Part shown: one piece after another, positions 7,703 through 41,877 of the stretch
Layout: the number at the start of each line of letters is the position of its first letter
How positions within the stretch are numbered: position 1 is the first letter of the stretch
Assembly (NCBI GenBank): GCA_964566055.1
Contig: CAZMHI010000009.1
Location: 19,447 to 83,446 of the forward strand
DNA from: an uncultured Rhodospirillaceae bacterium
Lineage (GTDB): Bacteria; Pseudomonadota; Alphaproteobacteria; Rhodospirillales; UBA2165
DNA: 64,000 nt
Direction: 5' to 3'
The notes under the pieces: generated by a model
Databases searched by the model: none
The model's input: the letters and a program-made list of their open reading frames with translations, nothing else
Told to the model about the DNA's origin: nothing
Translations under genes and position numbers: made by a program

Positions 7703-8679
7703 TGAAACCGAATGCACCACCCGCTGAATATGCCTTCGCCTATAAGGAAATGCCCTATTCCGGGAACAAGATTAACGGCCTCGGCTCAACGGAAAAATTC
7801 CGGCCCCACCCGCCTTTTCACAATACAGGCCGCGGTTCAGACCGCGAGGAAATTCCCTGGGCGGCTTTAGACACTTTTTTCAATATGTCCAATCCGTGGA
7901 CAGTATTTTGGGAAAATATCCGGGGATTATGGGAGCGGCGCAATGCGGCGGGTCCGGTGACGACTGAACCCATTGAAGTCACCGACCCGCAAGCCATATC
8001 GGATCAAGTTAAAGCTAAAGCCAAGGAAATCGGAGTAGAGTTGATCGGCATCTCGCTTTACGATGATGACAGTCAATATGTTGAAAATGCTTTCCCCTAT
8101 AAATACGCCATCATGCTAGGCATCGTCATGGACCGGGAAGCCATGGTGCAGGCGCCTCATACTCCAGCCGCCAAAGAAGTCATGCGGGGCTACCGCCTCG
8201 GCTCAAGACGCGCCAACCAACTGGCCGCCTATATTCGCTCGCTAGGCTGGCAGGCTGAAGGCTATGGCATCGGCGAAGATTTAATGCAGCATCCAATGGC
8301 GATTGCTTCGGGTATCGGCACCCTTGGTAAACACGGCTCATTGATCAGCCGTGAATATGGCTCCAATTTTAGGATCACTTCAGTCCTGACGGATTTACCG
8401 ATGGCCGTCGACGAACCGGTTGATTTTGGCGCAGAGGATTTTTGCCGCTCATGTAAGAAATGCGTTACCGAATGTCCGCCAGGCGCAATTTTCGACACCA
8501 AGCAAATGGTCCGGGGCGTCGAAAAATGGTATGTCGATTTCGATAAATGTATTTTTTATTTTTCGGACCACATGGGATGTTCGATTTGTATTGAAGTCTG
8601 CCCCTGGTCGGAACCGGGACGTGGCCCAAAATTATCTGAAAAGTTACTGAAACGGCGAGCGGAAGCGAAAGTCAGTTAG
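7702..8679 (+). CDS. Short reductive-dehalogenase-like protein (putative cobalamin and 2x[4Fe-4S]); no TAT signal
   Basis: GIGTLGKHGSLI..YGSNFRITSVLTDLP, CRSCKKCVTECP, Cx9CSICIEVCPW. Confidence 0.8.
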   Translation: MKPNAPPAEYAFAYKEMPYSGNKINGLGSTEKFRPHPPFHNTGRGSDREEIPWAALDTFFNMSNPWTVFWENIRGLWERRNAAGPVTTEPIEVTDPQAISDQVKAKAKEIGVELIGISLYDDDSQYVENAFPYKYAIMLGIVMDREAMVQAPHTPAAKEVMRGYRLGSRRANQLAAYIRSLGWQAEGYGIGEDLMQHPMAIASGIGTLGKHGSLISREYGSNFRITSVLTDLPMAVDEPVDFGAEDFCRSCKKCVTECPPGAIFDTKQMVRGVEKWYVDFDKCIFYFSDHMGCSICIEVCPWSEPGRGPKLSEKLLKRRAEAKVS

Positions 8680-9006
8680 TCAGATTTATAATCTAGCGCC
8701 TTTTCTGGTTTTTTTAACTTGGGCACTCATTGTGCCTGGATAAATTATTGATTTTCCCCCATAAAGCGCGTCCCCGTTGCAGATTGAATTAGCAATTTCT
8801 GCCTTCTCATTGAATCTATTCAATTTTAAAAGATCGTTGAGAGAAAACTAATTTAAGTGTAAATTTACGATTCTAGTGGAAATATTTGATTTCTGGAGCT
8901 AATTTCGCTTCGTTCTGTTCAAATTATTTTTTGACAAGAATGATTTTTACGGATGCGTTGATGATTCCAGAAACAATTGGGATTAATCACTAGAAGAAGA
9001 GAACAC

Positions 9007-21877: not shown

Positions 21878-22564
21878 ATGAATAAAATAGACAAAAACCT
21901 GGCTCAACCCGCAACAGATCGGCCAAAGCTCAGCGCTCCGGGCGGTGAGACCGACATTTTGCTGCATTCCTGCTGTGCGCCCTGTGCCGGCGACCTGATG
22001 GCCGAGTTAACGCGCTCGGACATCAACTATACAATTTTGTTCTATAACCCGAATATCCATCCGCGCAAGGAATACGAAATCCGCAAAGACGAGAACAAGC
22101 GCTATGCCGATAAGCTGGGCGTGCCGTTTGTTGATCTCGACTACAACAAAGAGGATTGGTTTCACAAAGTTGAAGGCTATGAGCATGAGCCCGAACGCGG
22201 TTATCGCTGCACGCTCTGCTTTGATATGCGGTTCGAACGTTCAGCACTTTATGCCGCAGAAAACGGCTTCAAAGTATTTACCTCGTCACTCGGCACGTCG
22301 CGCTGGAAAAATCTTGAGCAAATTAACGGCTGTGGCGAGCGGGCAGCGTCACGCTATGATGATCTCATCTATTGGACTTTTAACTGGCGCAAAAAAGGTG
22401 GCGCCAACCGGATGATCGACGTCTCCAAGCAAGAAAAGTTTTACCAGCAGGAATATTGCGGCTGCGCTTATAGCCTGCGTGACACCAATCAAAGCCGGGT
22501 GGAGCGCGGCATGGAGCCGATTAAGCTCGGTGTCAAGTTCTATGGCGACGACGCGGCGGATTAA
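21878..22564 (+). CDS. queH: Epoxyqueuosine reductase QueH (DUF208)
   Basis: [35 protein letters not shown]. Confidence 0.92.
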
Positions 22565-23469: not shown

Positions 23470-24216
23470 ATGCTGGAAATACTGACTGAAATTCTAAATC
23501 TCAGCCTATTAGCTGCTGCGGGTGTAGCTTTCCTAAGCGCACTGATCCAGGGCTATTCGGGATTCGGCGGCGGGCTGATCATTATTCCAATCCTCGCCAT
23601 TTTGTTCAGCCCCATTGAATCCATTGCCATTACCGCCCTTGCCGCCATATTCGGCACGGCGACGCTGTTACCGCAGGCCGTCAAGAAAGCCCAATGGTCC
23701 GAAGCGGCTCCGGTTTCCATCGCCCTTGCTATTGCCATACCCATTGGACTTTCATTCCTGGTGGCGGCTGACCCAATACTTATTCGCCGCGGCATGGGCG
23801 TGTTTATCTTGGCGGCTTCTGCAGTGCTGATCTCCGGCTGGACCTATCCCGGCAAGCGCAATCTGCTGACCAGCATCACGGCCGGCGCCATAACCGGCGG
23901 TGTCACCGGCAGTTTCGGTATTCCGGGCGGCCCCTTCATGGTGATTTACTATTTATCAGCCCCAGTCGAGCCGGCCGTCCAACGGGCGAATTTAATTATT
24001 TCCGTCGGCGTGGCGATCGTTTTTCTAATTGGTGGTCTCTTTGTCGCCGGTGCCTATACGCCTGAAACCATCATGCGGGCCATTGTTATTGTACCAATAT
24101 TCGTCGCCGGCTCCCGCACGGGCCAATATCTTTTCAAAGTTGCGCCGACTGAGTGGTTTAAGAAAGTGACTTTCGCCATATTGATCGCCACTGGTATTTC
24201 GATTTTGCTGGTTTAA
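23470..24216 (+). CDS. TSUP (TauE/SafE) family membrane transporter
   Basis: GYSGFGGGLI and GSFGIPGGP repeats; about 8 hydrophobic helices. Confidence 0.87.
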   Translation: MLEILTEILNLSLLAAAGVAFLSALIQGYSGFGGGLIIIPILAILFSPIESIAITALAAIFGTATLLPQAVKKAQWSEAAPVSIALAIAIPIGLSFLVAADPILIRRGMGVFILAASAVLISGWTYPGKRNLLTSITAGAITGGVTGSFGIPGGPFMVIYYLSAPVEPAVQRANLIISVGVAIVFLIGGLFVAGAYTPETIMRAIVIVPIFVAGSRTGQYLFKVAPTEWFKKVTFAILIATGISILLV

Positions 24217-24915: not shown

Positions 24916-26172
24916 CTATCTACCGCAGCATTTTTTATATTTCTTACCGCTGCCGCAGGGGCAGGGCTCGTTGCGTCCAACCGGTTGTACTGGCTTTTTC
25001 TCAGCAACACGTAAGCTTTCCATAACTTTTGCCGCCGGTTGTTTGGCTTTCCTGAGCTCTGCTATTTTTTCCAGATAGGGTTTGGCATGAAAATAGAAAT
25101 GCCGGTAACCGGCACAGAGGTAATTCAGCCCGTCTTCTCCATCCGGCGTCTGGATAAACCGGTCCTTGGGACAGCCGCCATTGCAGGAACTTAATACCTC
25201 ACAGTCCCGGCAATATTGAGGCAAGGCGTCTCTTTTATCGTCACCGAATTTTTCCAGCTCCCTGCCATTGATCATTTCGCCCAGCCGGGTCTCCCGGATA
25301 TTGCCGAGCCGGTTAGCTGGGTTAACGAAATGATCGCAGGTATAAAAATCGCCCGTATGCTCGACGACCACAACCTGGCCGCAGGTTTCGCGCAACATGC
25401 ACAACGAATGTTCCAGTCCGATATAAGGCCGGAGCGCTTCTTCGAAATTCTGGATCGTGATCTTGCCGATATCATGGTGAACCCATTCATCGAAAATAGC
25501 GCTTAAGAATTCGCCATAGGCCTTGGCCGGTACGGATTCGCCTTGAACATCATGATCACCCTGCCGGTTGACCAGAGGTAAAAACTGCAGATAGACCGTG
25601 CCGAGCTCTTTAAAGAAACGGTAGACTGTGGCGGGCTGGCGGACATTTCGCTCGTTGATGACACAAAGCAGATCGCAATGGATGCGAAACTTCTTAAATA
25701 AGCGATAGGCCTGCATCACCTGCTTGTGGGTCGCTTCGGCCTTTTTGGTCACCCGGTAATGATTGTGCAGATCACTCGGACCATCAATACTGAGCCCGAC
25801 ATGAAACTTCTCGGCGGCTAGGAAGCGGCACCAATCCTCGTCGATCAGCGTACCGTTGGTCTGGATACCGTTGAGAATTTTTTTCCCAAAGGGGCGATGC
25901 TTTTTCTGGATCTCAAGAATTTTCTGAAAATAGTCGATGCCGAGCAGGGTCGGTTCACCGCCATGCCAGGAAAATAATACATTCTCTTCGGGGCAGGCTT
26001 CGATATGTTGTTGGATATAAATCTCCAGCAGATCATCGGCCATGCGGTGGGATTTTGAGTCCGGGTAAAGCTCTTCTTTTTCAAGGTAATAACAATAGCC
26101 GCAGTCAAGGTTGCAGATCGCGCCAACCGGCTTGACCATGACCTGAAATTCCCGTCCCGCCGTACTTTCCAC
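24916..26172 (-). CDS. Anaerobic sulfatase maturase (radical SAM/SPASM) with C-terminal SEC-C motif
   Basis: KPVGAICNLDCGYCYY, WHGGEP, QTNG, SPASM cysteines, GRNEPCPCGSGKKYKKCC; GTG 26172 after GGGGA. Confidence 0.92.
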   Translation of the reverse strand: MESTAGREFQVMVKPVGAICNLDCGYCYYLEKEELYPDSKSHRMADDLLEIYIQQHIEACPEENVLFSWHGGEPTLLGIDYFQKILEIQKKHRPFGKKILNGIQTNGTLIDEDWCRFLAAEKFHVGLSIDGPSDLHNHYRVTKKAEATHKQVMQAYRLFKKFRIHCDLLCVINERNVRQPATVYRFFKELGTVYLQFLPLVNRQGDHDVQGESVPAKAYGEFLSAIFDEWVHHDIGKITIQNFEEALRPYIGLEHSLCMLRETCGQVVVVEHTGDFYTCDHFVNPANRLGNIRETRLGEMINGRELEKFGDDKRDALPQYCRDCEVLSSCNGGCPKDRFIQTPDGEDGLNYLCAGYRHFYFHAKPYLEKIAELRKAKQPAAKVMESLRVAEKKPVQPVGRNEPCPCGSGKKYKKCCGR

Positions 26173-26268
26173 TAAATCCCCCACTGGTGCGAATGGCTGA
26201 TGCCAATTATTCCGGCCTTTCCCAGATAACCACAAATATCCATTCGGGCAACGCAAATTATAAACTGG

Positions 26269-29972: not shown

Positions 29973-30875
29973 ATGAAAATTCATCCAACGGGAAAATTTG
30001 ACAATAGCGCTGAGGACTATAACCACATTGCAGCGCTGCCTCTGGCCGCCGCCATGGGAGCGGAAATCACCGGCGTTCAAATTAGCGACCTTACGGATGA
30101 GGCTTTCGCGGAAATTGAAGCTGCTCTTTATCGCCACAAGATGGTCTTTTTCCGCGACCAGGAGATCAGCCATACTGATCAGGAGAATTTTACTCTGCGT
30201 TTTGGCGAGTTCGGCACCGATGCCTATAATGCCGGCACGGAAGGCCACCCTGATATTCAAAAAGTCACCAAAGAGGCTGATACCCGCACCCATATGATTT
30301 TTGGCGGAACCTGGCATACGGATTCGCCATTTCTGGATCGCCCACCCGCCATCAGTATGCTCTACGCCGTTGATATTCCGCCTTACGGCGGCGATACGAT
30401 GTGGGCTAATAGCGCACTGGCGTATGAATTTCTGAGCGATACCATGAAAAATATTGTGACGCCGCTGAAAGTGCACATGTCAGCAGGCAATGTTGTCGCC
30501 GAAGTCATCAAGGATGGCGGCCGACAGCCGAAAAAGCTCGGGGCGACCAAGCTTAGCATTGATGTTGAACCGATGATCGAAGGAAATTTTCATCCGCTGG
30601 TGCGCAGCCATCCGGTGACGCACGAAAAGGCGCTTTATGTCGATGAAAGTTACACCATGGGCATCAAGGGTATGACTGAGTTCGAGGCAGCAGCGTTGTT
30701 GAACTTCCTTCAGTCGCATGTGACGCAGGATGCCTTTACCTGCCGGCTGCGCTGGCAAAAGAAAACGCTGGCGCTCTGGGACAACCGGATATGCCTGCAC
30801 CACGCCTTTAACGATCATGACGGCTTTCGCCGCGAGATGTACCGGACAACCGTGATGGGTGAAGTGCCGCAATAA
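29973..30875 (+). CDS. TauD/TfdA family 2-oxoglutarate-dependent dioxygenase
   Basis: WHTD, GGDT, HPLVRSHP, WDNRICLH..R. Confidence 0.93.
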   Translation: MKIHPTGKFDNSAEDYNHIAALPLAAAMGAEITGVQISDLTDEAFAEIEAALYRHKMVFFRDQEISHTDQENFTLRFGEFGTDAYNAGTEGHPDIQKVTKEADTRTHMIFGGTWHTDSPFLDRPPAISMLYAVDIPPYGGDTMWANSALAYEFLSDTMKNIVTPLKVHMSAGNVVAEVIKDGGRQPKKLGATKLSIDVEPMIEGNFHPLVRSHPVTHEKALYVDESYTMGIKGMTEFEAAALLNFLQSHVTQDAFTCRLRWQKKTLALWDNRICLHHAFNDHDGFRREMYRTTVMGEVPQ

Positions 30876-30996: not shown

Positions 30997-31605
30997 GTGG
31001 ATAAACAAACACCAAAGAACTCGGTTGTTGACCGGTTCGATGAAATTTACCGGGTTACCGTGAAGCTGTTTCTTGAACGCGGCTATGACAACACGCCCCT
31101 GTCGCTCATCGCCCAGGAACTCGGATTAAGTAAGGCCGGCCTCTATCATCATTTTGAGAGCAAGGAACAATTGCTCTTTCATATTCACAAATACTCTATT
31201 GAGGCGACGCTTGTTCCCGTAATTGAGCGCGCCGAAGCTGAAACAGATCCTTTGAAAAGGCTGGAACAATATATCCGTGAATTTGCCGAAGTGATGGTTC
31301 ATGACCCGGCGATTCGGGTACTGATCGAGGAATCGAAGAGACTGTCACCGGAAAACCTAAAAGTAATACAAGCCAGCTGGCGCCGAGGCTTTGAGATAAT
31401 GCGTTCAACTATTGCGGAACTGCAGGCAGCCGGCAAAGGAAAAAACGATTTAAATCCCACAATTGCCGCTTTTGCCGCCATCGGTATGTGCAGCTCAACG
31501 CCTTACTGGTTCAGCCATACAGGCGCCGAAAAGATCAGCGATGTGGGAAATCATTTTGCACAGATTTTTTGCCAAGGGGCACTTGAAGAGCCACCGGCAG
31601 ACTAA
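30997..31605 (+). CDS. TetR/AcrR family transcriptional regulator
   Basis: LFLERGY..IAQELGLSKAGLYHHFESKEQL HTH. Confidence 0.93.
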   Translation: MDKQTPKNSVVDRFDEIYRVTVKLFLERGYDNTPLSLIAQELGLSKAGLYHHFESKEQLLFHIHKYSIEATLVPVIERAEAETDPLKRLEQYIREFAEVMVHDPAIRVLIEESKRLSPENLKVIQASWRRGFEIMRSTIAELQAAGKGKNDLNPTIAAFAAIGMCSSTPYWFSHTGAEKISDVGNHFAQIFCQGALEEPPAD

Positions 31606-31637
31606 GATTAGAAGTTAGACATTGGGAGGGGATGAAA

Positions 31638-32522
31638 ATGGTTGTTTTTTACCGGCGGATGCCGCGGTTTGAGTATCTAAAACCGGACAGTTTCCAAGAC
31701 GTCTTAAATTTATTGCAGGACGGCGGGCCTGAGCGCTACCGGGTATTCGCAGGCGGCACCGATCTGATGGATCAGCTTAAGCAAAGAAAAATCGAGGTGC
31801 CGGAAACGGTGATTGATCTGAAAGGTCTGGCTGAGCTCGAATTTATCGACTTCGATAATTCATCGGGATTGCGCATCGGTGCCTTAACAACCGTCACCGA
31901 TGTTGCCAAATCTCCGGAGATTGAGCAGCACTATCCTGCTCTCGCCCAAGGTGCCCGCGAAATTGCTTCCATTCAAATCCAAAACCGGGCGACGATCACC
32001 GGCAATATTTGTAATGCCGTCTCTTCCGCTGATTCAGCGCCGCCCCTATTGGCGCTGGGTGCTGAGGTCGTCTGCGCCAGCGGTCAAAGCGAACGCAGGA
32101 TCAAAATCGAAGACTTCTTTGCCGGCCCCGGCAAAACCGTCTTGCAAGCGGATGAATTGGTGAAAGAAATCACCTTACCGCCGCCGGTTGAGGGCAGCGA
32201 TAGCGTCTATCTCAAATTGGCGCCAAGGGGCCGCATGGACCTGGCCTGGATCGGCGTCGCTGTCTGGGCCAGTATTTCGGATGGCAAATTCAACGATGTC
32301 CGCATTGGCTTAGGCGCTGCGGCGCCGACACCGATCCGCACACCTAAGGCTGAAGAATTCTTGCGCGGGGCGGATGTAACGGCAGAAAACATTGAAGCCG
32401 CCGGCGCAATTGCCTCTAGCGAAGCGAACCCCCGCGAAAACAGTTTCCGCGCTGGTGGCGAGTACCGCCACATGATGGTCGAGGTGCTGGTTAAGCGCGC
32501 GCTCACGCAGATCGCCGGATAA
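31638..32522 (+). CDS. Xanthine-oxidase-family molybdoenzyme, FAD-binding subunit
   Basis: AGGTDL, LRIGAL, IQNRATITGNICNA..ADSAP; ATG 31638 chosen on GGAGG spacing. Confidence 0.92.
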   Translation: MVVFYRRMPRFEYLKPDSFQDVLNLLQDGGPERYRVFAGGTDLMDQLKQRKIEVPETVIDLKGLAELEFIDFDNSSGLRIGALTTVTDVAKSPEIEQHYPALAQGAREIASIQIQNRATITGNICNAVSSADSAPPLLALGAEVVCASGQSERRIKIEDFFAGPGKTVLQADELVKEITLPPPVEGSDSVYLKLAPRGRMDLAWIGVAVWASISDGKFNDVRIGLGAAAPTPIRTPKAEEFLRGADVTAENIEAAGAIASSEANPRENSFRAGGEYRHMMVEVLVKRALTQIAG

Positions 32523-32534
32523 GGGAGAGATAAA

Positions 32535-33032
32535 ATGGAAAAAATCACCTGCAATTTTACGGTAAACGGCAAGGCTGAAGAGGTTTCTCTAAACCCCAAC
32601 CGGACCCTGCTGCACATGCTGCGCGAAGACCTGCTCTTTCACGGCGTCCGCGAAGGCTGCAGCCATGGTGAATGCGGCTCCTGCAACGTTATTCTCGACG
32701 GCAAGCTGGTGAATGCTTGCCTGATCCTGGCGGTTGAAGCCGATGGCATGGAAATCCTCACCGTCGAAGGCATGGCCGAGGGCGAAGACCTGCACCCCAT
32801 CCAGCAAGCTTTTGTCGATGAAAGCGGCATGCAATGCGGCGCCTGCACCACTGGCATGATTTTGTCGACGAAAAATCTCCTTGATGCTAATCCTGATCCC
32901 AGCCGCGAAGAGATCAAGGACGCGCTGGCTGGCAATTTCTGCCGCTGCACCGGCTATGCCAAGATATTTGAATCCGTTGAAGCCGCAGCTGAGACCATGA
33001 AGGGGCGGTATGAAAAAGGGAGTGTGGCATGA
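32535..33032 (+). CDS. Xanthine-oxidase-family molybdoenzyme, 2x[2Fe-2S] subunit
   Basis: GCSHGECGSC..NAC, QCGAC..CRCTGY. Confidence 0.95.
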   Translation: MEKITCNFTVNGKAEEVSLNPNRTLLHMLREDLLFHGVREGCSHGECGSCNVILDGKLVNACLILAVEADGMEILTVEGMAEGEDLHPIQQAFVDESGMQCGACTTGMILSTKNLLDANPDPSREEIKDALAGNFCRCTGYAKIFESVEAAAETMKGRYEKGSVA

Positions 33033-35368
33033 GCGATCAACCCGCAAAAATCGGTGATAACTGGCCAAATTTGATCGGCAAACGCCTGCCCCGGGTCGAT
33101 GCGGTCGAGAAAGTCAACGGCGACGCTAAATATGCCGGTGACTTTAATATGGCGGGGCAGCTCTGGATGAAAATCCTGAGGAGCCCTTACCCCCACGCCA
33201 AAATCATCAGCATCGACGCCAGCAAAGCGCTGGCCCTGCCGGGTGTCAAAGAAGTCGTGACCGGCAAGGATTTCAATGGCTGGTCCTGGGGCTGGGGGCC
33301 GACGACGCGGGATGAAACGCCCTTGGCTGATGAGAAAGTCCGCTATTTCGCCGAAGCCGTCGCTGCAGTCGCCGCCGAAGATGAAGAAACCGCCGAGGAA
33401 GCTTGTGCTCTTATTGATGTCGTCTACGAGGAGTTGCCGGGCATTTTTGATGCGGAAGAAGCGATGAAAGACGGCGCGCCGCAAGTGCACGACTATGTCG
33501 ACAACAATATCAGCTGGGATTTTCACATGGATTACGGCGATGTCGAGGAAGGCTTCGCCGAGGCTGATCTGGTGCGGGAAGACCGCTTCGAAACCGGCCG
33601 TACGTTGACCGGCTTTTTGGAGCCACCAGCTGCGGTCGCTCAGTACGACACCTCCGGCATTACCATCCATGCCGCCAAACAAAGCCCGTATTTTATTTAC
33701 CGCCAACTGGCGTCTTGTTTTAAATTGCCACTTAGCAAAGTCCGCGTTATCCAGCCCTATGTCGGGGGCGGTTTCGGCGGCACCAAAAACGATTCTACTG
33801 CCGGTGATTTTTGCGCCGTCATGTTGGCCAAGAAGACCAAACGGCCGGTTAAGTTCGTCTATAACATGGAAGAAGTGCTGACGACCTGCCGCCGCCGTCA
33901 CAATATGATTGTCGACTGTAAAATGGGCATGAAAAAGGACGGCACCATCACAGCAGTGCAGACCAAAGTGATTGCTGATGGCGGCGCTTTTACAGCGATC
34001 GGTCCGCTGACCATGTATCTCACCGGTATCATGACGACCCTGCCCTATAAGCTGAAGCATTATAAACATGATGCCTACCGCATCTTCACCAATCATCCGG
34101 TTAGCGCCGCCATGCGTGGCCACGGCGTCACCCATACGCGCTTTGCCGCTGAAATCCAGATGGAGAAAATGGCCGATGAGTTGGGCATCGATCCGGTCGA
34201 AGTGCGGATGATTAATGCCATCGAAGCGCCCCATGAGACCATCAACGGCATCACGGTAGACACCTGCGGCCTCAAGGAAGGTCTGGAGATTGTTTCCTCA
34301 TCCTCGGCCTGGAAAGACAAAGATCAAAACAAAAAGGATGGCCCGGTGGTCCGGGGCGTCGGCATTTCCGGCACCTCGCATTTGGGCGGCGCCCGCCAGC
34401 GAGGTCATCAGTCCTGTGCTGCTATCGTCCGGCTCTGTGAAGACGGCACGGTCAATTACCTGACCGGCGCCAGCGATGCCGGTCAAGGATCAGATACGGT
34501 GCTGGTTCAACTGGTCGCTGAAGAGCTCGGTTTGACCATGGAAGATGTCTCCATCCAGCGGGTGGATACGGCGGTGACACCGGTCGATAACGGCAGCTAC
34601 GGCAGCCGGGTGACGATATTAGCCGGCCAGGCCGCGCAAAAAGCTGCTCAGGAAGTAAAACGCCAGCTGGCCGAGGCCGCCGCCAAAATCTGGCAGGTTG
34701 AGGCGGACAAAATCCTCTTTAACGACCGCACTGTCTTTGTCGATGGCGATCCGGATAAGTCCATGCCCTTTAAGAAACTCACTCAGATTGCCTGCTATTC
34801 CGAAACCGGGGCGGTGATTATGGGCAAAGGCTATTCAGAATACGGTCTGGAAAAAATGGATTTCGAAAAAGGCTATGGTAATCCCGGGGTCAATTACAGT
34901 TTTACCTCTCAGCTTTCCGCCGTCGATGTCGATATTGAAACCGGCATGGTCAGCGCCAAAGATTTTCTCATCGCCCATGATTGTGGCCGGCCCTTGCATC
35001 CAGTGAACGTTGAAGCTCAAACTCAGGGTGCCGCTTCGCAAGGCTTAGGCCAGGCGCTTTACGAGCACTTCCAAATGCGCAACGGCCACACCATGAACTC
35101 GACCATGGTTAACTACATGATGCCGCTTTCGACTGAACACCCGGATTTTGAACTGCATGACATCATTACCGATGATCCGCACGGTCCCTTTGGCGCCAAG
35201 GAAGCCTCAGAAGGCTCGATCATTTCAACCCCGCCTTCGATCGTCAGTGCCATCCACGATGCCACCGGTATCTGGTTCACCAAGCTGCCGGTAACGCCGG
35301 AAAAAATTGTGCTCGCCCTCAAAGAGAAAAAAGAACGCGAGGCCGCTCTACAGAAGGAAAATGAGTAA
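33029..35368 (+). CDS. Molybdopterin-binding subunit, 4-hydroxybenzoyl-CoA reductase alpha (HcrA/HbaC)-like
   Basis: VGGGFGG, AMRGHG, GQGSDT, GSYGSRVT, GPFGAKEASEG. Confidence 0.88.
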   Translation: MSDQPAKIGDNWPNLIGKRLPRVDAVEKVNGDAKYAGDFNMAGQLWMKILRSPYPHAKIISIDASKALALPGVKEVVTGKDFNGWSWGWGPTTRDETPLADEKVRYFAEAVAAVAAEDEETAEEACALIDVVYEELPGIFDAEEAMKDGAPQVHDYVDNNISWDFHMDYGDVEEGFAEADLVREDRFETGRTLTGFLEPPAAVAQYDTSGITIHAAKQSPYFIYRQLASCFKLPLSKVRVIQPYVGGGFGGTKNDSTAGDFCAVMLAKKTKRPVKFVYNMEEVLTTCRRRHNMIVDCKMGMKKDGTITAVQTKVIADGGAFTAIGPLTMYLTGIMTTLPYKLKHYKHDAYRIFTNHPVSAAMRGHGVTHTRFAAEIQMEKMADELGIDPVEVRMINAIEAPHETINGITVDTCGLKEGLEIVSSSSAWKDKDQNKKDGPVVRGVGISGTSHLGGARQRGHQSCAAIVRLCEDGTVNYLTGASDAGQGSDTVLVQLVAEELGLTMEDVSIQRVDTAVTPVDNGSYGSRVTILAGQAAQKAAQEVKRQLAEAAAKIWQVEADKILFNDRTVFVDGDPDKSMPFKKLTQIACYSETGAVIMGKGYSEYGLEKMDFEKGYGNPGVNYSFTSQLSAVDVDIETGMVSAKDFLIAHDCGRPLHPVNVEAQTQGAASQGLGQALYEHFQMRNGHTMNSTMVNYMMPLSTEHPDFELHDIITDDPHGPFGAKEASEGSIISTPPSIVSAIHDATGIWFTKLPVTPEKIVLALKEKKEREAALQKENE

Positions 35369-36513
35369 TGGAATATCCCTTTGACGACGACCAAAAGACT
35401 TTTAGAGAACATCTTTCCCGCTGGGTTGATGAACGATTAATCCCCCGTGCCGAAGAATTGGATGAAAGCGGTGACTTTGCCCGGGATCTGTTCAAAGAAC
35501 TCGGTGAGCTCGGCTATCTTGGTATCAAATACCCGGAAGAATATGGCGGTGCTGGGTTGGACCAGCGCTATGTCTATTACACCATGATGTGTGAAGAACT
35601 GGCACGGGGCTCGATGGGCTTTGCCGCCACGGTCGCCATGCATGGCTCGGCTGCCTCGCACATGTTGTTCGAGGACGGTACGGAAGAACAAAAACAAAAA
35701 TATCTGGTACCGGCGCTCAAAGGCGACATGGTCTGCGCCTTTGCCATCACCGAACCGCAAGCCGGCTCAGATGCCGCCGCCATCCGCACCCGCGCCGAAC
35801 GTACCGACGATGGCTGGGTAATCAATGGCAGCAAAATATTTACCTCGAACGGCGTCCATGCGGATTTTATTACGGTCGTTGCCAAAGTCGATGGCGTCGC
35901 CGGAGCAAAAGGCATGGCGTTATTTTTAGTCGACACCAAGACCCCAGGCTTTAGTGTGGGCCGCCAAATTGAAAAATTCACAACGCATTGTTCGGACACG
36001 GCGGAGCTGTTTTTTGAAGACATGAAGCTGCCGCTCGATTGCCGCTTGGGCGGCGAAGATAGCGACTTTAAAGGCGCTTACCGGATGCTGACCGTCGACC
36101 GGATCATTACCGCAGCGATTGCTTTAGGTAATGCCAAGGCGGCTTATCAAGCCGCGCTGGCCTATGCCCACGAACGCGAGCAGTTTGACCAAACTATTTT
36201 TAACTTCCAGGCGGTGCAGTTTAAACTGGTTGATATGTTGGCAACCTTGGAGCAAGCGCATCTCTATACCTATCACTGCGCGGCCATGGCGGATCGCGGT
36301 GAGGATGTCACCAAAGAAGCGGCGATTGCCAAAATTGTCGCTGGTGACGGCGGTAATGAAATTTGCCAGAAAGCACTTAATATTTTCGGCGGCTATGGGC
36401 TGACGATGGAATATCCGGCGCAGCGCTATTTGCGGGATTCTTACTTTCCATTGATCGGCGGCGGCACCAGTGACATCATGCGTCTGCTAGCTGCCAGGAA
36501 ATTGGGGATTTAG
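35368..36513 (+). CDS. Acyl-CoA dehydrogenase family protein
   Basis: FAITEPQAGSD, INGSKIFTSNG, REQF, IFGGYG; its ATG overlaps the upstream stop. Confidence 0.93.
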   Translation: MEYPFDDDQKTFREHLSRWVDERLIPRAEELDESGDFARDLFKELGELGYLGIKYPEEYGGAGLDQRYVYYTMMCEELARGSMGFAATVAMHGSAASHMLFEDGTEEQKQKYLVPALKGDMVCAFAITEPQAGSDAAAIRTRAERTDDGWVINGSKIFTSNGVHADFITVVAKVDGVAGAKGMALFLVDTKTPGFSVGRQIEKFTTHCSDTAELFFEDMKLPLDCRLGGEDSDFKGAYRMLTVDRIITAAIALGNAKAAYQAALAYAHEREQFDQTIFNFQAVQFKLVDMLATLEQAHLYTYHCAAMADRGEDVTKEAAIAKIVAGDGGNEICQKALNIFGGYGLTMEYPAQRYLRDSYFPLIGGGTSDIMRLLAARKLGI

Positions 36514-36530
36514 AAGGGGAAATAGTTACA

Positions 36531-37472
36531 ATGTCAAAAGAACGCATCACGGGATCATTTGTCGCCCTAATCACGCCGTTTAACGAAGATGGCTCGATTG
36601 ATTTCGAAGGCTTCCGGACACTGCTGGATTTTCATGAAAATAACGGCACCAGCGCCGTGCTGATCATGGGGTCAACCGGCGAAGTTTCGATGCTGAGCCC
36701 CGAAGAACGTCATCAAATTGTGACAGAGACCCTGAAACATAAATCTGGAAAGATGCTGTTTTACTATGGCTGCACCGGACCTCATACCCAGGCAACCATT
36801 GACTACGTAGCCCACGCCGCCAAGGAAGGCGCTGACGGCGCCATTATCGCGGCGCCGGCTTATATCTGCGCCTCGAACGAAGATATTGTTCAGTATTTCC
36901 TCGAGGTTGCCGATGCCAGCGATATTCCCATTGGTATTTACAACAATCCGCCGCGGGTGAAAACCGATCTGACGACGGCTGATATTGTCCGTCTGGCCGA
37001 TCATCCCAACATTGTCGTCAACAAGGAATCAACCACCCGGGTCGGTCAGGTCGCTCAGCTGTGCGCGGCCAAGCCGGATCTGTCGCTGATGTGCTGCTGT
37101 TCTCCCAATCTGGGTCTGGTTGTGCCTTTGATGGCTCTCGGCGGACACGGTACGGCGAATATGACCGGCAATCTTATCCCGCAGGAAATGGCCATTATAT
37201 CCACACCCTGGCAGGATGACGGTGACGCTTTTAACTGCCGCGAAGCTTGGCTCAAAAACCTGCCGATGTTGCATTTCGCTTATTCGGAAACAAATCCAGT
37301 GGCTGTAAAATCCCTAATGCAGGCAATCGGCATGCCGGCCGGGCCCTTAAGACGCCCCCTCAGGCCTTTAAATCCCCAAGCCCTGCAAGTGGGCTTGGAT
37401 ATCGTGCGCGATCTGGAACTGGATAAAAAGTATGGCTATTCGCTGAAATCGGCGCTGGCAGCTGCAGAATAG
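36531..37472 (+). CDS. DapA/NAL-family class I aldolase
   Basis: ALITPF, GSTGE, IYNNP, Schiff-base Lys in NKES. Confidence 0.88.
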   Translation: MSKERITGSFVALITPFNEDGSIDFEGFRTLLDFHENNGTSAVLIMGSTGEVSMLSPEERHQIVTETLKHKSGKMLFYYGCTGPHTQATIDYVAHAAKEGADGAIIAAPAYICASNEDIVQYFLEVADASDIPIGIYNNPPRVKTDLTTADIVRLADHPNIVVNKESTTRVGQVAQLCAAKPDLSLMCCCSPNLGLVVPLMALGGHGTANMTGNLIPQEMAIISTPWQDDGDAFNCREAWLKNLPMLHFAYSETNPVAVKSLMQAIGMPAGPLRRPLRPLNPQALQVGLDIVRDLELDKKYGYSLKSALAAAE

Positions 37473-37794: not shown

Positions 37795-38316
37795 TTGTCC
37801 GTAGCTTATAACTTTTCTGAAATAACAATTTTTATTGTCGAGGAAAATCCGTTTCTTCGCGAATTGCTATCGGATTTGTTAAAACAATTTAAGCCCAAAA
37901 AAATTTACACTGAATCCAAATGTGACATTGCCTTAGAGCGCATAACTGAAATTATGCCAGACATCATTTTTGCCAGCTGGACCCCGATGTCTGAAATCAT
38001 TCACCTCTTCAAAAATGTGCGCCACAGTCCTAACGATAATCTAAGCGAAATACCGATTATCGCCATCACGTCGTATACCGAAAAGAAATACGTGATTGCG
38101 GCCAGGGATCTGGGTATGAGCGAATATCTCGCCTTGCCGCTATCGGCGAAATCGGTTTACGCCCGCATCTGTAAGCTCATTGAGAAACCAAGAAATTTTG
38201 TCCGCTCGGCCGTCTATTGCGGACCTGATCGGCGCGTTAAAAAAATTGTCTATCCGGGTGAAGAGCGCCGCAAAGAAAGCGCAGAATCGGAAGACGCAGA
38301 GCAAGTCAGCGCCTGA
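37795..38316 (+). CDS. Atypical (pseudo-)receiver domain protein with GPDRR tail
   Basis: Receiver fold pattern with IPIIAIT, ARDLG and YCGPDRR; lacks the phospho-Asp and conserved Lys. Confidence 0.8.
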   Translation: MSVAYNFSEITIFIVEENPFLRELLSDLLKQFKPKKIYTESKCDIALERITEIMPDIIFASWTPMSEIIHLFKNVRHSPNDNLSEIPIIAITSYTEKKYVIAARDLGMSEYLALPLSAKSVYARICKLIEKPRNFVRSAVYCGPDRRVKKIVYPGEERRKESAESEDAEQVSA

Positions 38317-38425
38317 CATAATTTTTAATACCCGCCCATTCTCTATTTCTTAAAAACTCAAAGACACTTTAGGTGTGGGATTAGTTATGTATACTTATTG
38401 CTCTTAAATGGGGGAGGTATTGATT

Positions 38426-39046
38426 ATGGGTCTTACTGTGATTGGGGCCGGTTTCGGCCGCACCGGAACGGAATCGATGAAAACCGCCTTGGAAATGCTG
38501 GGGCTCGGTCCCTGTCAGCATATGAAAGTCCTGCTGGCGGATCCAAAGCAGGAAGCCTATTGGCGCCAAGTCCTCAAAGATGAGCAGCAGGGCAATCTAC
38601 CGGATTGGGATGAGGCCTATGCCGGCTATAATTCCGGTGTTGATTGGCCGACCGCCTATTATTGGCGCGAACTTGCTGACTTTTATCCGGAGGCAAAAAT
38701 CCTGCTGACCGTCCGGGATGCCGAGGCTTGGTACAAAAGTATCGCCAACACCATTTTAAAAGTTGTCCAGAAACTGTCAGATCCGGACTCCATCGGCCTC
38801 AAAATGATCAATGAAGGGGTCTTCCATAACCGTCTCGAAGACCGCGATTACACCATCGCGCTTTATGAAAAACATAACGCCGAGGTGCGAGCTGCCTTTC
38901 CGCCGGAGCGATTATTAGAGTATAATCTGGGTGATGGCTGGGAGCCGCTCTGTGAGTTCCTGGAGATACCGGTGCCGGATGAGCCCTACCCGCAAAGCAA
39001 TGCCGGTGATGAGTTTCATGAGTTTTTTGACAAACGAGTTAGTTAA
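38426..39046 (+). CDS. Sulfotransferase-family P-loop protein (Sulfotransfer_4-like)
   Basis: VIGAGFGRTGTESMK.ALE.LG, DWP, AKILLTVRD..W..S, GDGWEPLCEFL; GGAGG RBS. Confidence 0.88.
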   Translation: MGLTVIGAGFGRTGTESMKTALEMLGLGPCQHMKVLLADPKQEAYWRQVLKDEQQGNLPDWDEAYAGYNSGVDWPTAYYWRELADFYPEAKILLTVRDAEAWYKSIANTILKVVQKLSDPDSIGLKMINEGVFHNRLEDRDYTIALYEKHNAEVRAAFPPERLLEYNLGDGWEPLCEFLEIPVPDEPYPQSNAGDEFHEFFDKRVS

Positions 39047-39058
39047 TGGAGCACAGTT

Positions 39059-40324
39059 TTGAGTAATTACCCGCGCAATGAGCCGGAACGGCTGACTGTG
39101 GAAAACCAGCCGAGCAGTGAAGGTAAATATAGCGAGATTGGTGAATTGCACCGCGATGACGATGAATTTTGCGGTTTTGAAATTCTCGATAATTTTGAGC
39201 GCTTTAATCAAACCAACGATATCTATACGCGCGGCCAATGGGATGAACGCATCAGATCGGAAAAAGTTCTCAATTGGTTCAAGGGCATGTTCCGGCCCGG
39301 CATCGGCGTTAAAAAAAGCGAAGGCTATCAGGCCCGAGATTTTGCCATGAAGAACGCCGGCTGGATGGCTACCAATCTTATCATCGAACGCAATCTCAAA
39401 GGTGACCGGGTTGATGGCTTCCTGGATTACATTCAGGAATTCTGCCCGCCTCATACCGAAAAAATGGAAATCGAGTCAGTCGAACAAATGACCGCCGAGG
39501 TTAAACATGCCTGTCTGACATTCGGCGCCAGCGATGCCGGTATCACGGCTTACGATCCGCGCTGGCATTACACCAAGAATTTCTCGACCAAAACCCTGTC
39601 GGAAAAGGAATATGGCATTCCGGAAGATTTGCCGAACGTGATCGTGGTGCTGACCGAAATGGACCATGAGGTCATTCGCACCTACCCCTCGGCAACCGCA
39701 GGTGTCACCGTCGGCAATGGCTATTCCCATGATTGCGCCATGACGCTCTCGATCGCCACCTATATTCAGAACATGGGCTACCGCGCGGTGGCGACTGTAA
39801 ACGACACCTCTCAATGTATTCCCTATGCCATCCAGGCCGGGCTCGGTGAATACGGGCGCAATGGTATGCTGATCCATCCGAAGTTTGGCCCACGCATGAG
39901 GATTGGCCGCATTCATACTGATTTGCCGCTCAATCACGATAAGCCGATACGGTTTGGCGTGCGTGAATTCTGCGAGGTTTGCCGCCGCTGCTCTGATGGC
40001 TGTCCGCCGAGCGCGATCCCGGACGGCCCACCTCAGGACGAGATCATCAATCAGTCAAACATTGTCGGTATTAAAAAGTGGACCGTCGATGCGGAGAAGT
40101 GTTTCAAATTCTGGGTCAACCAGGGCACCGAATGCGGCGTTTGCATGCGGGATTGTCCCTATAATAAAGACACCTCCAGCTGGCTCGTTCAGAAGTACCA
40201 TCAGATGTGGCTAAAGCTGGCGGCCTCGCCGTTCAAAAAGCTCGCCTTGTGGCTGGATATCAAGCTTGGCTTCGGTGGCCGCTTGCGCCCCAATGACTAT
40301 TGGTCAAAGATACTGAAAAAGTAA
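39059..40324 (+). CDS. Reductive dehalogenase (RdhA family), no TAT signal
   Basis: FGASDAGI, AIQAGLGEYGRNGMLIHPKFGPRMRIGRIHTDLPL, FCEVCRRCSDGCP, Cx10CGVCMRDCPY. Confidence 0.88.
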   Translation: MSNYPRNEPERLTVENQPSSEGKYSEIGELHRDDDEFCGFEILDNFERFNQTNDIYTRGQWDERIRSEKVLNWFKGMFRPGIGVKKSEGYQARDFAMKNAGWMATNLIIERNLKGDRVDGFLDYIQEFCPPHTEKMEIESVEQMTAEVKHACLTFGASDAGITAYDPRWHYTKNFSTKTLSEKEYGIPEDLPNVIVVLTEMDHEVIRTYPSATAGVTVGNGYSHDCAMTLSIATYIQNMGYRAVATVNDTSQCIPYAIQAGLGEYGRNGMLIHPKFGPRMRIGRIHTDLPLNHDKPIRFGVREFCEVCRRCSDGCPPSAIPDGPPQDEIINQSNIVGIKKWTVDAEKCFKFWVNQGTECGVCMRDCPYNKDTSSWLVQKYHQMWLKLAASPFKKLALWLDIKLGFGGRLRPNDYWSKILKK

Positions 40325-40344
40325 ATACTAGTTAGCGGGGGATC

Positions 40345-41877
40345 ATGGATAAGCGCACATTCGGCCAGGTTCTGAACGCCAATATGACTCACCATGGCAA
40401 TCGAATTGCGATTATCGATGGGGCTGCCAGCTGGACTTACGCTGAATTTGGCGCCCGCGTTTTCAAGCTGGCGAACATTCTGGACGAGCTTGGTTTGAAA
40501 CGGGGTGACCGCTTTGCCATTCAGGCCAAGAACGGCCGGGCTTTTGAAGAATTACGCTGGGCCGGATATGTCAGTGGTATCGTGCCAGTAGCGATCAACT
40601 GGCGGCTGGCCCCGCCTGAGATTAAGCATGTGCTCGAAGATTCCAGCTCGAAAATCATTTTTATCGATGAAGAATTTGTCGCCGTCTATGACAGTGCTGA
40701 GTTAGACCAATGGCAGGCCGGGCTGCAGCCCATCGGCCCTGGTTTAGAAGCGCAAATTGAGCAGGCATCAACGGCTGAAACCAATCCCGGCGTCAGCCCC
40801 GATGATGACGCCCTGTTGCTGTATACCGGCGGCACCACCGGGCGCAGCAAAGGTGTGCGGCTGAGCCATTGGAATATTATTTCCTGCGGCCTGGCTTTCG
40901 GTCTCGGCGTCGGTGCCCGGCCGGATGGGGTTTTTCTCCATGTCGCGCCGATGTTTCACTCAGCTGATTTACTCTCAACCGGGTGGTTTTTGACCGCTGG
41001 CGCGCATTGTTATATGCCGGCTTTTTCCCCCGCCGGTTTTCTGGAGATTGTCCAGGATAGCAAAGTCAGCGCCACGGTGACCGTACCGGCCATGCTGATG
41101 GCCATCGTGAGTGGAGCCGGTGGTGCCAACGTCACGGATTTTAATTTGTCATCGCTCAAAACGCTTATTTTTGGTGCCTCACCGATGTCCTTTGAATGGA
41201 CCGAGCGTGTCGCCAAGGCCTTCCCCGATGCCGGTTTCCTCAACTGCTATGGGCTCACCGAAACCTCACCGGACTTAACGATTTTTAACGCGGCTGAGTT
41301 CCGGGCCGCCATTGAAAGCGGCGAGCGCGACGGTATTGTCAACTCGGTCGGCAAACCCAACATGCTGGTGGATTTGCGCGTGGTCGGCAGCGATGGTCAG
41401 GATGTCGCCCCGGGCGAAGTCGGCGAGCTGTGGGCACGCGGGCCGAACATCATGCAGGGCTATCTCAATTTGCCCGAAGAAACCGCAGCCGCCCTCACCG
41501 ATGGCTGGCTGCATACCGGTGATATGGCGCGCATCGATGAGCAGGGCTTTGTCTATCTTTTGGACCGGCTGAAGGATTTGGTCATCACCGGCGGCGAAAA
41601 TGTTTATTCATCAGAGGTCGAAGCTGCCTTGCACCGCCATCCTGCTGTCAGCGAGGCCGCCATTATCGGTATCCCCGATGAAAAACTCGGCGAAGCCCTG
41701 TTTGCCGTCATTGTCTTACGCCCCGAAGAAGAGGTCAGCGACGAAGACCTCATTGCTCACTGCCGGGATTTGATCGGCGGCTACAAAATCCCCCGCCAAT
41801 ACGCCTTCGTCGAGGCCCTCCCCAAAAGCGCTTTGGGTAAAGTTCTCAAAGCGGAGTTGAGGGCGGCGTACGGTTAG
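40345..41877 (+). CDS. Acyl/aryl-CoA ligase (AMP-binding, long-chain-fatty-acid-CoA ligase-like)
   Basis: YTGGTTGRSKG, YGLTE, GWLHTGD, DRLKD..GGENVY, PKSALGK. Confidence 0.93.
   Translation: MDKRTFGQVLNANMTHHGNRIAIIDGAASWTYAEFGARVFKLANILDELGLKRGDRFAIQAKNGRAFEELRWAGYVSGIVPVAINWRLAPPEIKHVLEDSSSKIIFIDEEFVAVYDSAELDQWQAGLQPIGPGLEAQIEQASTAETNPGVSPDDDALLLYTGGTTGRSKGVRLSHWNIISCGLAFGLGVGARPDGVFLHVAPMFHSADLLSTGWFLTAGAHCYMPAFSPAGFLEIVQDSKVSATVTVPAMLMAIVSGAGGANVTDFNLSSLKTLIFGASPMSFEWTERVAKAFPDAGFLNCYGLTETSPDLTIFNAAEFRAAIESGERDGIVNSVGKPNMLVDLRVVGSDGQDVAPGEVGELWARGPNIMQGYLNLPEETAAALTDGWLHTGDMARIDEQGFVYLLDRLKDLVITGGENVYSSEVEAALHRHPAVSEAAIIGIPDEKLGEALFAVIVLRPEEEVSDEDLIAHCRDLIGGYKIPRQYAFVEALPKSALGKVLKAELRAAYG

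Follow-up and report, generated by a model that had tools for sequence, protein, structure and literature searches.

A conserved pair of a leaderless reductive dehalogenase homolog and a dedicated acyl-CoA ligase in an uncultured Rhodospirillaceae bacterium points to a possible breakdown route for halogenated organic acids

The stretch of DNA analyzed here (the window) comprises 64,000 nucleotides of contig CAZMHI010000009.1 (positions 19,447 to 83,446, forward strand; assembly GCA_964566055.1, 4.48 Mb, 93% complete) from an uncultured Rhodospirillaceae bacterium, and it carries three adjacent genes coding for a sulfotransferase-family protein, a reductive dehalogenase homolog (RdhA) and an acyl-CoA ligase. 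In window coordinates, the locus reads as follows.

38317..38425, plus strand: 109-nt spacer before the sulfotransferase gene, a probable promoter and ribosome-binding site
38426..39046, plus strand: Sulfotransfer_4 (PF17784) gene, 206 amino acids (212 from an alternative in-frame ATG at 38408)
39059..40324, plus strand: leaderless, stand-alone RdhA gene with a TTG start, 421 amino acids, member of a ligase-linked clade
40345..41877, plus strand: acyl/aryl-CoA ligase gene of the ANL family, 510 amino acids, conserved partner of RdhA

Counted from the ATG at 38426, which has a GGAGG 7 nt to its 5' side and agrees with the starts of orthologs, the intergenic gaps are 12 nt (sulfotransferase/RdhA) and 20 nt (RdhA/ligase), so that the compact, co-oriented layout described in the original prediction is confirmed by the open reading frame (ORF) coordinates, and this spacing suggests that the three genes are co-transcribed. 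A weak hairpin with a T-run (38305-38317) closes the response-regulator gene upstream of the sulfotransferase gene, and a promoter and terminator scan gave counts at chance level (6 vs 5.2 and 7 vs 7.3 in shuffled sequences). Our analysis shifts the focus from a three-gene operon to the leaderless RdhA and its dedicated CoA ligase, a combination that is conserved and unexplained.

The middle gene is a genuine RdhA by all of the sequence and fold tests run. The protein passes the NCBIfam model TIGR02486 (190.3 bits vs a cut-off of 160.35), stays below the threshold of the Pfam Dehalogenase family (PF13486; 20.5 vs 24.3 bits) and fails the model of the epoxyqueuosine reductase QueG (TIGR00276; 46.3 bits vs an equivalog cut-off of 200). 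Its best matches among solved structures are the PceA enzymes of Desulfitobacterium (8q4h_A; 4.1e-51) and Sulfurospirillum multivorans (4uqu_A; 4.5e-45), followed at weaker similarity by NpRdhA (1.1e-25) and QueG (1.2e-10), and a Foldseek search with the AlphaFold2 model (built on an alignment of 56 relatives; pLDDT 89.4, pTM 0.90) gave query-based TM-scores (TMq) of 0.73 for 8q4h_A (E 8.8e-28), 0.64 for 4uqu_B, 0.64-0.67 for NpRdhA and 0.35 for QueG. The core motif GLGEYGR...GPRMRIGRIHTDLP lies at residues 261-290, the tyrosine of the GYS motif is Y222, the first Fe-S motif is CEVCRRCSDGCP at 305-316, and the second consists of C348 and CGVCMRDCP at 359-367; the eight cysteines concerned (C305, C308, C311, C315, C348, C359, C362 and C366) are invariant in both family alignments, of 56 and of 41 relatives. 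Residues 182-284 align without gaps to positions 206-308 of the 4uqu chain, which puts Y222, N248 and R281 at positions 246, 272 and 305, and these three residues are likewise invariant in both alignments. N272 and R305 are active-site residues of PceA. An active-site role of PceA Y246 is given in the accessible part of PMC10008544. The motifs named in the original prediction (both Fe-S motifs, the GLGEYGR core and the GYS tyrosine) are thus present, and with TIGR02486 passed and the PceA triad equivalents kept, the protein is predicted to be a corrinoid enzyme with two [4Fe-4S] clusters and a complete scaffold.

The first 60 residues of this RdhA contain no RR motif of the twin-arginine translocation (TAT) type, no membrane helix was detected (peak 19-residue hydropathy 0.82), and the Pfam and NCBIfam scan of the 421 residues revealed no extra domain, including no reductase domain. 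The gaps of 12 and 20 nt, together with 37 nt before the next gene downstream, leave no room for rdhB at the locus. These checks uphold the earlier proposal of an RdhA with neither TAT leader, RdhB nor fused reductase, and the protein looks to be of the cytoplasmic, non-respiratory type. A role as terminal reductase of organohalide respiration might be considered, as the closest solved relatives are respiratory PceA enzymes and the organism comes from low-oxygen water, but the lack of a TAT motif, of a membrane helix and of rdhB or space for it, and the absence of a convincing TAT leader from all 21 RdhA-like genes of the genome, make this extremely unlikely.

Judged by its sequence, the third gene encodes an intact adenylate-forming acyl-CoA ligase of the ANL family, with Pfam matches to AMP-binding (2.6e-72) and AMP-binding_C (6.1e-21). 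The stretches YTGGTTGRSKG, YGLTE, TGD and a C-terminal GK, which we take to be the ANL core motifs and the catalytic lysine, are intact and invariant in 23 orthologs. Its best solved relative is a feruloyl-CoA synthetase (8wev; 1.5e-81), and 4-chlorobenzoyl-CoA ligase is also related (2.6e-44). Orthologs of this ligase, sharing 46-79% identity, come after the RdhA orthologs in other genomes and metagenomes.

The conservation of this arrangement was assessed in 108 loci (24 from species genomes, 80 from metagenomes and the four class-A paralogs of the host itself), in which RdhA, ligase and sulfotransferase were located by tblastn and counted from the tblastn coordinates. The 101 loci with an RdhA of at least 330 amino acids were grouped at 90% identity into 46 clusters; fragments were left out of the clustering (L030, L032, L063, L069, L087, L094 and L110), two of which, L063 and L069, also have an adjacent ligase, and the Pfam scan of neighboring genes left out L045, L046, L064, L067, L068 and L091, which are GC-rich with spurious antisense ORFs. 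At an RdhA identity of at least 55% to the query there are 31 clusters, four of them uninformative owing to contig ends, and a same-strand ligase lies within 700 bp of RdhA in 23 of the 27 informative ones (21 downstream, two upstream). The ligase is found 2.1-2.2 kb downstream in two further clusters (L050, L077), and L041 and the L058 cluster have no same-strand ligase. Below 52% RdhA identity, a ligase is present in two of 14 informative clusters (Chitinophagales L016/L017 and the host's own paralog on contig C12). The linkage of RdhA to a CoA ligase is therefore real and widely kept.

The two partners also diverge together, the identities of RdhA and ligase to those of the window falling in step (100/100, 92/78, 85/74, 82/71-73, 75/64, 64/56 and 59/51-57%), with the ligase identity dropping to 28-31% for the RdhA group at 55-57%. 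A FastTree phylogeny of 41 RdhA representatives and four outgroup paralogs places all 24 ligase-linked rows in one 31-row subtree (support 93), and none of the 10 rows outside this subtree has a ligase. The closest loci to the window come from uncultured marine Rhodospirillaceae or Rhodospirillales metagenome-assembled genomes, and the pair spans Alphaproteobacteria as well as Burkholderiales-labelled and other metagenome contigs, at RdhA identities from 100% to 55%; a word-based search at E <=1e-20 gave a clade size of 1559 proteins. The full trio is found in one of the 46 RdhA clusters (four close genomes), and none of eight distant Sulfotransfer_4 homologs lies near an RdhA, so the trio did not prove to be a recurring unit when its recurrence was checked. 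The conserved core is RdhA with its dedicated ligase, and a single species group has the three-gene operon.

Twenty alignment positions, including sites 73 and 77, divide the ligase-linked clade from the other RdhA rows. R111 is present in 100% of the clade and replaced by mostly hydrophobic residues outside it, and H170 is clade-specific too. Sister clades of 44-51% identity show the same RdhA architecture, paired with permeases instead of a ligase; the neighbors in ligase-less loci include an amino-acid permease with an AAA_21 ATPase (Gemmatimonadota, four loci), a Trp/Tyr permease (Halieaceae), and a pyridoxal phosphate-dependent enzyme with a phenol hydroxylase. Among the 31 representatives within the clade, a divergent TetR gene accompanies nine and a DctP binding protein of a tripartite ATP-independent periplasmic (TRAP) transporter accompanies four, which hints at carboxylate uptake and ligand-responsive control.

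The host genome (G000) offers a second view of the pairing. A tblastn search with the window RdhA located 21 places of the RdhA superfamily, comprising four of 413-425 amino acids (class A, the clade of the window RdhA), three of 447-449, two of 724-733, one of 502 and eleven of 318-437; the 724- and 733-residue proteins are possibly NpRdhA-like, as suggested by their N-termini and weak similarity. Examples from this search are:

C94:5614-6891: RdhA-superfamily place
C53:32305-33546: RdhA-superfamily place
C12:67506-68774: RdhA-superfamily place
C6:7344-9518: RdhA-superfamily place
C53:33625-35826: RdhA-superfamily place

Three of the four class-A RdhA genes are followed by a ligase after 21-34 nt, in a genome with 33 ligases in total. 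In a quick maximum-likelihood tree of these 33, the window ligase pairs with C26_52209 (46% identity; SH-aLRT support 100), and the C12 and C94 ligases group with one on C67 on a separate branch (99), so this RdhA clade has partners from two or more ligase lineages, an argument that the pairing is under selection. Two of the loci concerned are arranged as follows.

C94:2992-8484 (L126): TetR, an uncharacterized 335-residue protein, a 331-residue Fe-S RdhA-like protein, RdhA (425 amino acids) and ligase (519 amino acids)
C26:50766-57602 (L129): FGE-sulfatase/DinB_2 protein, ligase (closest paralog of the window ligase), CoxL-type molybdenum (Mo) enzyme and UbiD

At the C94 locus, the gene for the 331-residue Fe-S protein overlaps the RdhA paralog by 8 nt and a DDE transposase adjoins; this extended module recurs in L070. 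An alternative is that RdhA and ligase share no substrate and are neighbors by chance or through shared regulation only, the sulfotransferase being an unrelated insertion. The variable slot upstream of RdhA (occupied once by a DDE transposase, L036), the four of 27 clusters with no ligase and the restriction of the trio to one species group could be read in this way, but diverse taxa retain the pair over RdhA identities of 100% to 55%, different ligase lineages recur beside RdhA paralogs, and we estimate that three immediate adjacencies out of four would be very unlikely by chance with 33 ligases among ~4,200 genes. We consider an adjacency with no shared substrate quite improbable.

Clues to the substrate come from the surroundings, including a gene cluster upstream of the trio in the window.

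30997-31605, plus strand: TetR gene preceding the Mo hydroxylase
31632-35368, plus strand: three-subunit Mo hydroxylase, 4-7 kb upstream
31632-37472, plus strand: the Mo hydroxylase together with an acyl-CoA dehydrogenase and a dihydrodipicolinate synthase (DHDPS)-family gene

The best model for the large subunit of the Mo hydroxylase is the alpha subunit of 4-hydroxybenzoyl-CoA reductase (4-HBCR), at 712.5 bits below the cut-off of 994.55 (XdhA, 522.6); the FAD subunit is XdhB-like, with no full match to the 4-HBCR beta model, and the acyl-CoA dehydrogenase that follows scores best, below cut-off, with acryloyl-CoA reductase. The cluster would fit aromatic acyl-CoA metabolism. A phenolic or aromatic substrate is favored by this 4-HBCR-alpha-like enzyme (below cut-off), by feruloyl-CoA synthetase as the best solved relative of the ligase, by the position of the closest ligase paralog between a CoxL-type Mo enzyme (27% identical to that of the window) and UbiD, and by the Amidohydro_2 genes that flank two clade members, L013 and the C53 paralog. 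The Amidohydro_2 family includes hydroxybenzoate decarboxylases. Leaderless marine reductive dehalogenases that act on halophenols, as reported in the accessible part of PMC13101508, point in the same direction, and the TRAP DctP and TetR genes mentioned above hint at an acid. Taken together, the surroundings hint at halogenated phenolic or aromatic acids as the substrate.

We consider it likely that the two enzymes act on one carbon skeleton, RdhA by dehalogenating a halogenated carboxylic acid and the ligase by forming the CoA ester, whichever of the two acts first. In the pathway we propose, RdhA would reductively strip the halogen from the acid, the likeliest substrate class being ortho-halogenated phenolic acids (halo-hydroxybenzoates, -phenylacetates or -cinnamates, for example). 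Electrons would reach RdhA from a soluble low-potential donor encoded outside the unit, in which neither a ferredoxin nor a reductase is encoded. The ligase would turn the same carbon skeleton into a CoA thioester for further breakdown, and the sulfotransferase, a recent addition in the species group, would probably act with 3'-phosphoadenosine 5'-phosphosulfate (PAPS) on a phenolic hydroxyl of the same compound class. The genome encodes cobN (1639 bits) and an adenosine 5'-phosphosulfate (APS) kinase (248 bits), which makes a supply of both cobalamin and PAPS plausible. As a whole, the reading of the pair as a cytoplasmic catabolic module for a halogenated, probably phenolic acid, with dehalogenation of the free acid slightly the likelier first step, appears to us a little better than evenly balanced.

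Several observations weigh against this reading. The specificity of the ligase is not readable from its sequence, as no NCBIfam equivalog cut-off was reached (430.8 bits for the best model, NF004837, vs a cut-off of 476, the other listed equivalogs scoring far below). Four of the 27 informative clusters have no adjacent ligase, and the permease-paired sister clades indicate that RdhA function as such does not require a ligase. No conserved CoA-processing neighbor emerged in the 31 in-clade loci, where an enoyl-CoA hydratase (ECH) and a CoA-transferase each occur once and acyl-CoA dehydrogenase (ACAD), 4HBT and glutathione S-transferase (GST) genes do not occur; the Mo-enzyme/ACAD/DHDPS cluster, common only to the window and L012, was excluded from the conserved unit. 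A dedicated ligase for each paralog, together with the clade-specific R111 and H170, would moreover fit dehalogenation at the level of the CoA ester equally well.

The two steps could take place in either order. An order in which RdhA dehalogenates the free acid and the ligase then activates the product with CoA is favored by the gene order (RdhA, then ligase), by a coherent route from RdhA through the ligase to the 4-HBCR-like reductase in the window, and by the small free molecules that RdhAs with known substrates use; this sequence of steps we put forward tentatively, as falling somewhat short of an even chance. In the alternative order, the ligase would act first on the halogenated acid and RdhA would then dehalogenate the acyl-CoA, with the thioester serving as recognition handle and electron-withdrawing activator. 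There is precedent for dehalogenation of CoA esters by enzymes other than RdhA, with 4-chlorobenzoate and 3-chlorobenzoate, and a 4-chlorobenzoyl-CoA ligase is related to the window ligase at 2.6e-44. The class-A paralogs have their own ligases despite 33 in the genome, suggesting unusual, still-halogenated acids as substrates, and two ligase lineages were recruited; R111 and H170 could bind the CoA phosphates, and no thioesterase is conserved with the pair in the 31 in-clade loci. Against the CoA-ester order stand the gene order, the mere 20 positions that set the ligase-linked clade apart from the ligase-less clades, and the known-substrate RdhAs, all of which take small free molecules in the accessible parts of PMC13101508 and PMC12219181 (the NpRdhA structure 6zy1, a Foldseek match, names 3-bromo-4-hydroxybenzoate as substrate in its title, and Ros_A3X954 uses 2,6-dibromophenol according to PMC13101508). 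We regard dehalogenation of the CoA ester as rather unlikely.

The first gene of the unit encodes a protein with a strong match to Sulfotransfer_4 (PF17784; 2.5e-63, 214.2 bits vs a cut-off of 22.8), whose best solved relatives are 9kf1_A (1.9e-53) and SgdX2 (8y9p; 2.9e-45), with schistosome oxamniquine sulfotransferases matching at about 1e-26 to 1e-31. It shares with 9kf1 the stretches GxGRTGT and RD..WY.S, which we take to be PAPS-binding loops, and probably sulfates small molecules with PAPS as donor. The genome has a single copy of the gene, and it adjoins RdhA only in the window and in L009, L011 and L012 (genomes G000, G011, G007 and G005); the eight homologs from other genomes, at 54-78% identity, have no RdhA within 1.5 kb. 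In sister lineages with 80-86% RdhA identity the same upstream slot holds a formyltransferase (L013) or an Asp/Glu-racemase-like gene (L014), and in further ones a DDE transposase (L036) or a divergent gene with no family match (L010). The Sulfotransfer_4 gene is thus a local addition, the lineage-specific first gene of the unit, and that it acts on the same compounds as RdhA is, in our estimate, nearly an even matter. The transposase of L036 (3757-4851) belongs to the DDE_3 type and lies directly upstream of an RdhA-ligase pair 82% identical to that of the window, which suggests that the pair, or the slot upstream of it, is prone to rearrangement. Separately, Sulfotransfer_4 homologs in five genomes of genus g12 (L123, L124, L125 and two other places) each carry a single in-frame TGA, which may encode selenocysteine or be a defect that they have in common.

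A second, non-homologous sulfotransferase type was found beside RdhA-family genes of the host genome, at two loci.

C12:61000-73000 (L127), from 9064 down to 4052, minus strand: arylsulfotransferase-like gene (P0124, 401 amino acids), RdhA (422 amino acids), ligase (513 amino acids) and GST (203 amino acids)
C84:13190-15220 (L153/L154): small RdhA-like gene (318 amino acids) and, 19 nt downstream, an arylsulfotransferase-like gene

The C12 gene lies 87 nt upstream of the RdhA paralog and encodes a protein with no signal peptide that matches Arylsulfotrans (PF05935; 1.3e-19) and Arylsulfotran_2 (PF14269; 3e-17), its best solved matches being 9kf6 (8.6e-13, weak) and 9kf4 (about 9e-13). Adjacency of its orthologs to a class-A RdhA is confined to three of 17 ortholog loci, in G000, G007 and G005. 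The C84 adjacency is kept in G007, G011 and G003, and G013 has a P0124-type copy at a distance of ~1 kb from a small RdhA-like gene related to that of C84 (loci L155-L158); in all, small RdhA-like and arylsulfotransferase-like genes adjoin in five of 30 loci examined. With 21 and 11 such genes among ~4,200 in G000, a rough expectation of chance adjacencies is 0.1 per genome, compared with two observed in addition to that of the single-copy Sulfotransfer_4. However, related genomes do not count as independent, and the bacterial family has expanded sets of both gene types (cytoplasmic arylsulfotransferase-like beta-propeller genes occur in 36 of 36 same-family genomes, G001-G036, with up to 17 per genome, and in five of 24 searched genomes of other families of the order), so we treat the adjacency as suggestive. 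Two unrelated sulfotransferase types beside three RdhA-family genes in this lineage are nevertheless a new observation. The sulfate link raised in the original prediction stands in so far as an arylsulfotransferase-like gene precedes a second RdhA-ligase pair, and falls short in that the Sulfotransfer_4 adjacency is confined to four close genomes; a link of sulfo-transfer to RdhA-ligase pairs is possible and lineage-restricted.

The same genes raise the question of whether the reductase removes halogens at all. An RdhA-fold enzyme with another reaction, such as reductive cleavage of a sulfate ester formed by the neighboring sulfotransferase, would agree with the sulfotransferase-type genes beside three RdhA-family genes of this genome and with QueG, which shows that the fold can reduce other groups, but the dehalogenase Tyr/Asn/Arg triad is intact and orthologs at 80-86% identity have no sulfotransferase neighbor, and we regard this as very improbable. 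Nor does it seem more than a long shot that sulfo-transfer is coupled to RdhA-family reduction, with a sulfate ester as the recognized form of the substrate or as a pseudohalide leaving group for the Co(I) corrinoid. Sulfotransfer_4 (at one locus) and the arylsulfotransferase-like proteins (at two) would then sulfate a phenolic hydroxyl and, in the leaving-group case, some 'dehalogenases' would be reductive de-oxygenases that depend on B12 and take the acid or its CoA ester as substrate.

Three further genes, placed in the same block as the trio, had been taken to fit the pathway of the original prediction.

23470-24216: TSUP (TauE/SafE) gene, from the window scan
24916-26256, minus strand: radical-SAM/SPASM protein, from the window scan, earlier taken for a sulfatase maturase
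29973-30875: TauD (Pfam 5.9e-54)

They lie 8-15 kb upstream of the trio, separated from it by a two-component system, an EF-hand protein, a cytochrome b561, the TetR gene and the Mo-enzyme cluster, and none of the window ORFs scanned matches Pfam Sulfatase, so their inclusion is not borne out. The glycoside hydrolase family 10 (GH10) gene that follows the ligase after 37 nt in the same orientation was likewise considered and is not part of the unit, L011 and L012 being without it. The radical-SAM/SPASM protein carries a C-terminal SEC-C metal-binding motif (2.3e-10), unusual for a sulfatase-maturase-like enzyme. Elsewhere in the window (7702-8679, plus strand) a small RdhA-like Fe-S protein of 325 amino acids, 29-32% identical to RdhA residues 129-370 and with a Fer4_7 match (6e-8), neighbors a RodZ-like helix-turn-helix protein (8977-10488). 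A QueH gene (21878-22564, plus strand; 2.8e-63) is also present, so that none of the QueG-like small RdhA relatives need be responsible for epoxyqueuosine reduction.

Work on reductive dehalogenases has dealt almost wholly with the respiratory enzymes of specialist anaerobes and with a few NADPH-linked catabolic enzymes. The clade described here is large and uncharacterized, consisting of stand-alone, leaderless RdhAs that pelagic, soil and mat bacteria inherit along with a dedicated CoA ligase, and the pair points to an unstudied breakdown route for halogenated organic acids. If this is true, ordinary heterotrophs would have a means to dehalogenate natural halogenated acids and to channel the carbon into CoA-dependent catabolism and, were the pair to work as proposed, it would bear on marine bromine and iodine cycling. 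Dehalogenation on the thioester, if true, would be the first case of a corrinoid dehalogenase acting on an acyl-CoA. With 21 RdhA-family genes and two sulfotransferase-like families beside three of them, the host genome is a good test bed.

Compared with the respiratory PceA enzymes (8q4h, 4uqu), which are its best sequence matches, the window RdhA has the fold, both Fe-S motifs and the equivalents of Tyr246, Asn272 and Arg305 in common, but its N-terminal 180 residues are not alignable by sequence, and in place of a TAT leader, an RdhB anchor and a membrane complex it has a CoA ligase as partner. NpRdhA (4ras/6zy1) and BhbA of Comamonas 7D-2 are cytoplasmic and non-respiratory, as the window RdhA appears to be, and the core fold is common (TMq 0.64-0.67). 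However, they are ~700 amino acids long, with a vestigial N-terminal cobalamin domain and in some cases a C-terminal NADPH reductase, neither of which the 421-residue window protein possesses, and only the C-terminal half aligns with NpRdhA (query 222-372 to chain 426-574), at the weaker similarity given above. Enzymes of the NpRdhA/BhbA type act on halogenated hydroxybenzoates according to the portions of PMC12219181 and PMC13101508 at hand. A cold-seep survey describes, in its accessible part, a 'simplified cytosolic type' of RdhA of ~395 amino acids and beta-oxidation genes near cytosolic rdhA (PMC12219181); the words 'CoA' and 'ligase' are absent from its main text. Literature searches covering main articles found no RdhA paired with a CoA ligase or a sulfotransferase, in agreement with the earlier statement that no characterized dehalogenase operon is known to have these partners.

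The 4-chlorobenzoate pathway (ligase, 4-chlorobenzoyl-CoA dehalogenase and thioesterase) likewise couples an ANL ligase, related to that of the window (2.6e-44), to the dehalogenation of an aromatic acid. Its dehalogenase is a hydrolytic enzyme of the crotonase fold, not a corrinoid reductase, and its thioesterase has no counterpart linked to the RdhA-ligase pair. For the sulfotransferases, the nearest parallel is the two-step sulfation of caprazamycin by a PAPS-dependent sulfotransferase and the arylsulfate sulfotransferase Cpz4, two enzyme types that each have a representative next to an RdhA-ligase pair in this genome; the caprazamycin system serves biosynthesis and includes no dehalogenase, and the match of P0124 to 9kf6 is weak (8.6e-13). 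The codes 9kf4 and 9kf6 fall in the same numeric run as 9kf1, the match of the Sulfotransfer_4 protein, and we presume, as a guess, that 9kf1 is the PAPS-dependent partner of caprazamycin sulfation. The accessible part of bioRxiv 10.64898/2026.10.08.757629 gives 9KF6 as a Streptomyces arylsulfate sulfotransferase (ASST) acting on caprazamycin derivatives.

Closer in type are the leaderless reductive dehalogenases Ros_A3X954 (Roseobacter) and A0A2T7UTL8 (Pararhodobacter aggregans), which are active on 2,6-dibromophenol and 2,4,6-triiodophenol in the accessible part of PMC13101508. Like the window RdhA they are leaderless and marine alphaproteobacterial, with Fe-S motifs that start 54 residues apart as in the window protein, a comparison made from their description only, in whose accessible part no ligase partner is mentioned (PMC13101508). 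The names Roseobacter and Pararhodobacter aggregans are absent from the best 120 matches of the window RdhA (at least 50% identity), most of which are nameless. The T7RdhA and A6RdhA proteins of Acidimicrobiaceae are, in the accessible part of PMC10008544, leaderless and PceA-like and, when expressed in E. coli, are reported to bind a corrinoid together with two Fe-S clusters; the proposed perfluorooctanoic acid (PFOA) substrate of T7RdhA rests on docking, and that part of the article reports no ligase. T7RdhA and the window RdhA are both leaderless, PceA-like, stand-alone and of similar size, and nine pocket residues given for T7RdhA map with identical spacing to Y56, W73, F74, M77, K98, W102, Y222, F349 and W352. 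Four of these nine are identical in the window RdhA, compared with all nine in a ligase-less marine group at 46-51% identity, which indicates that the pocket of the window RdhA differs. From residue numbering only, we infer a sister relationship between the window RdhA and the T7RdhA type, the pockets of the two being different.

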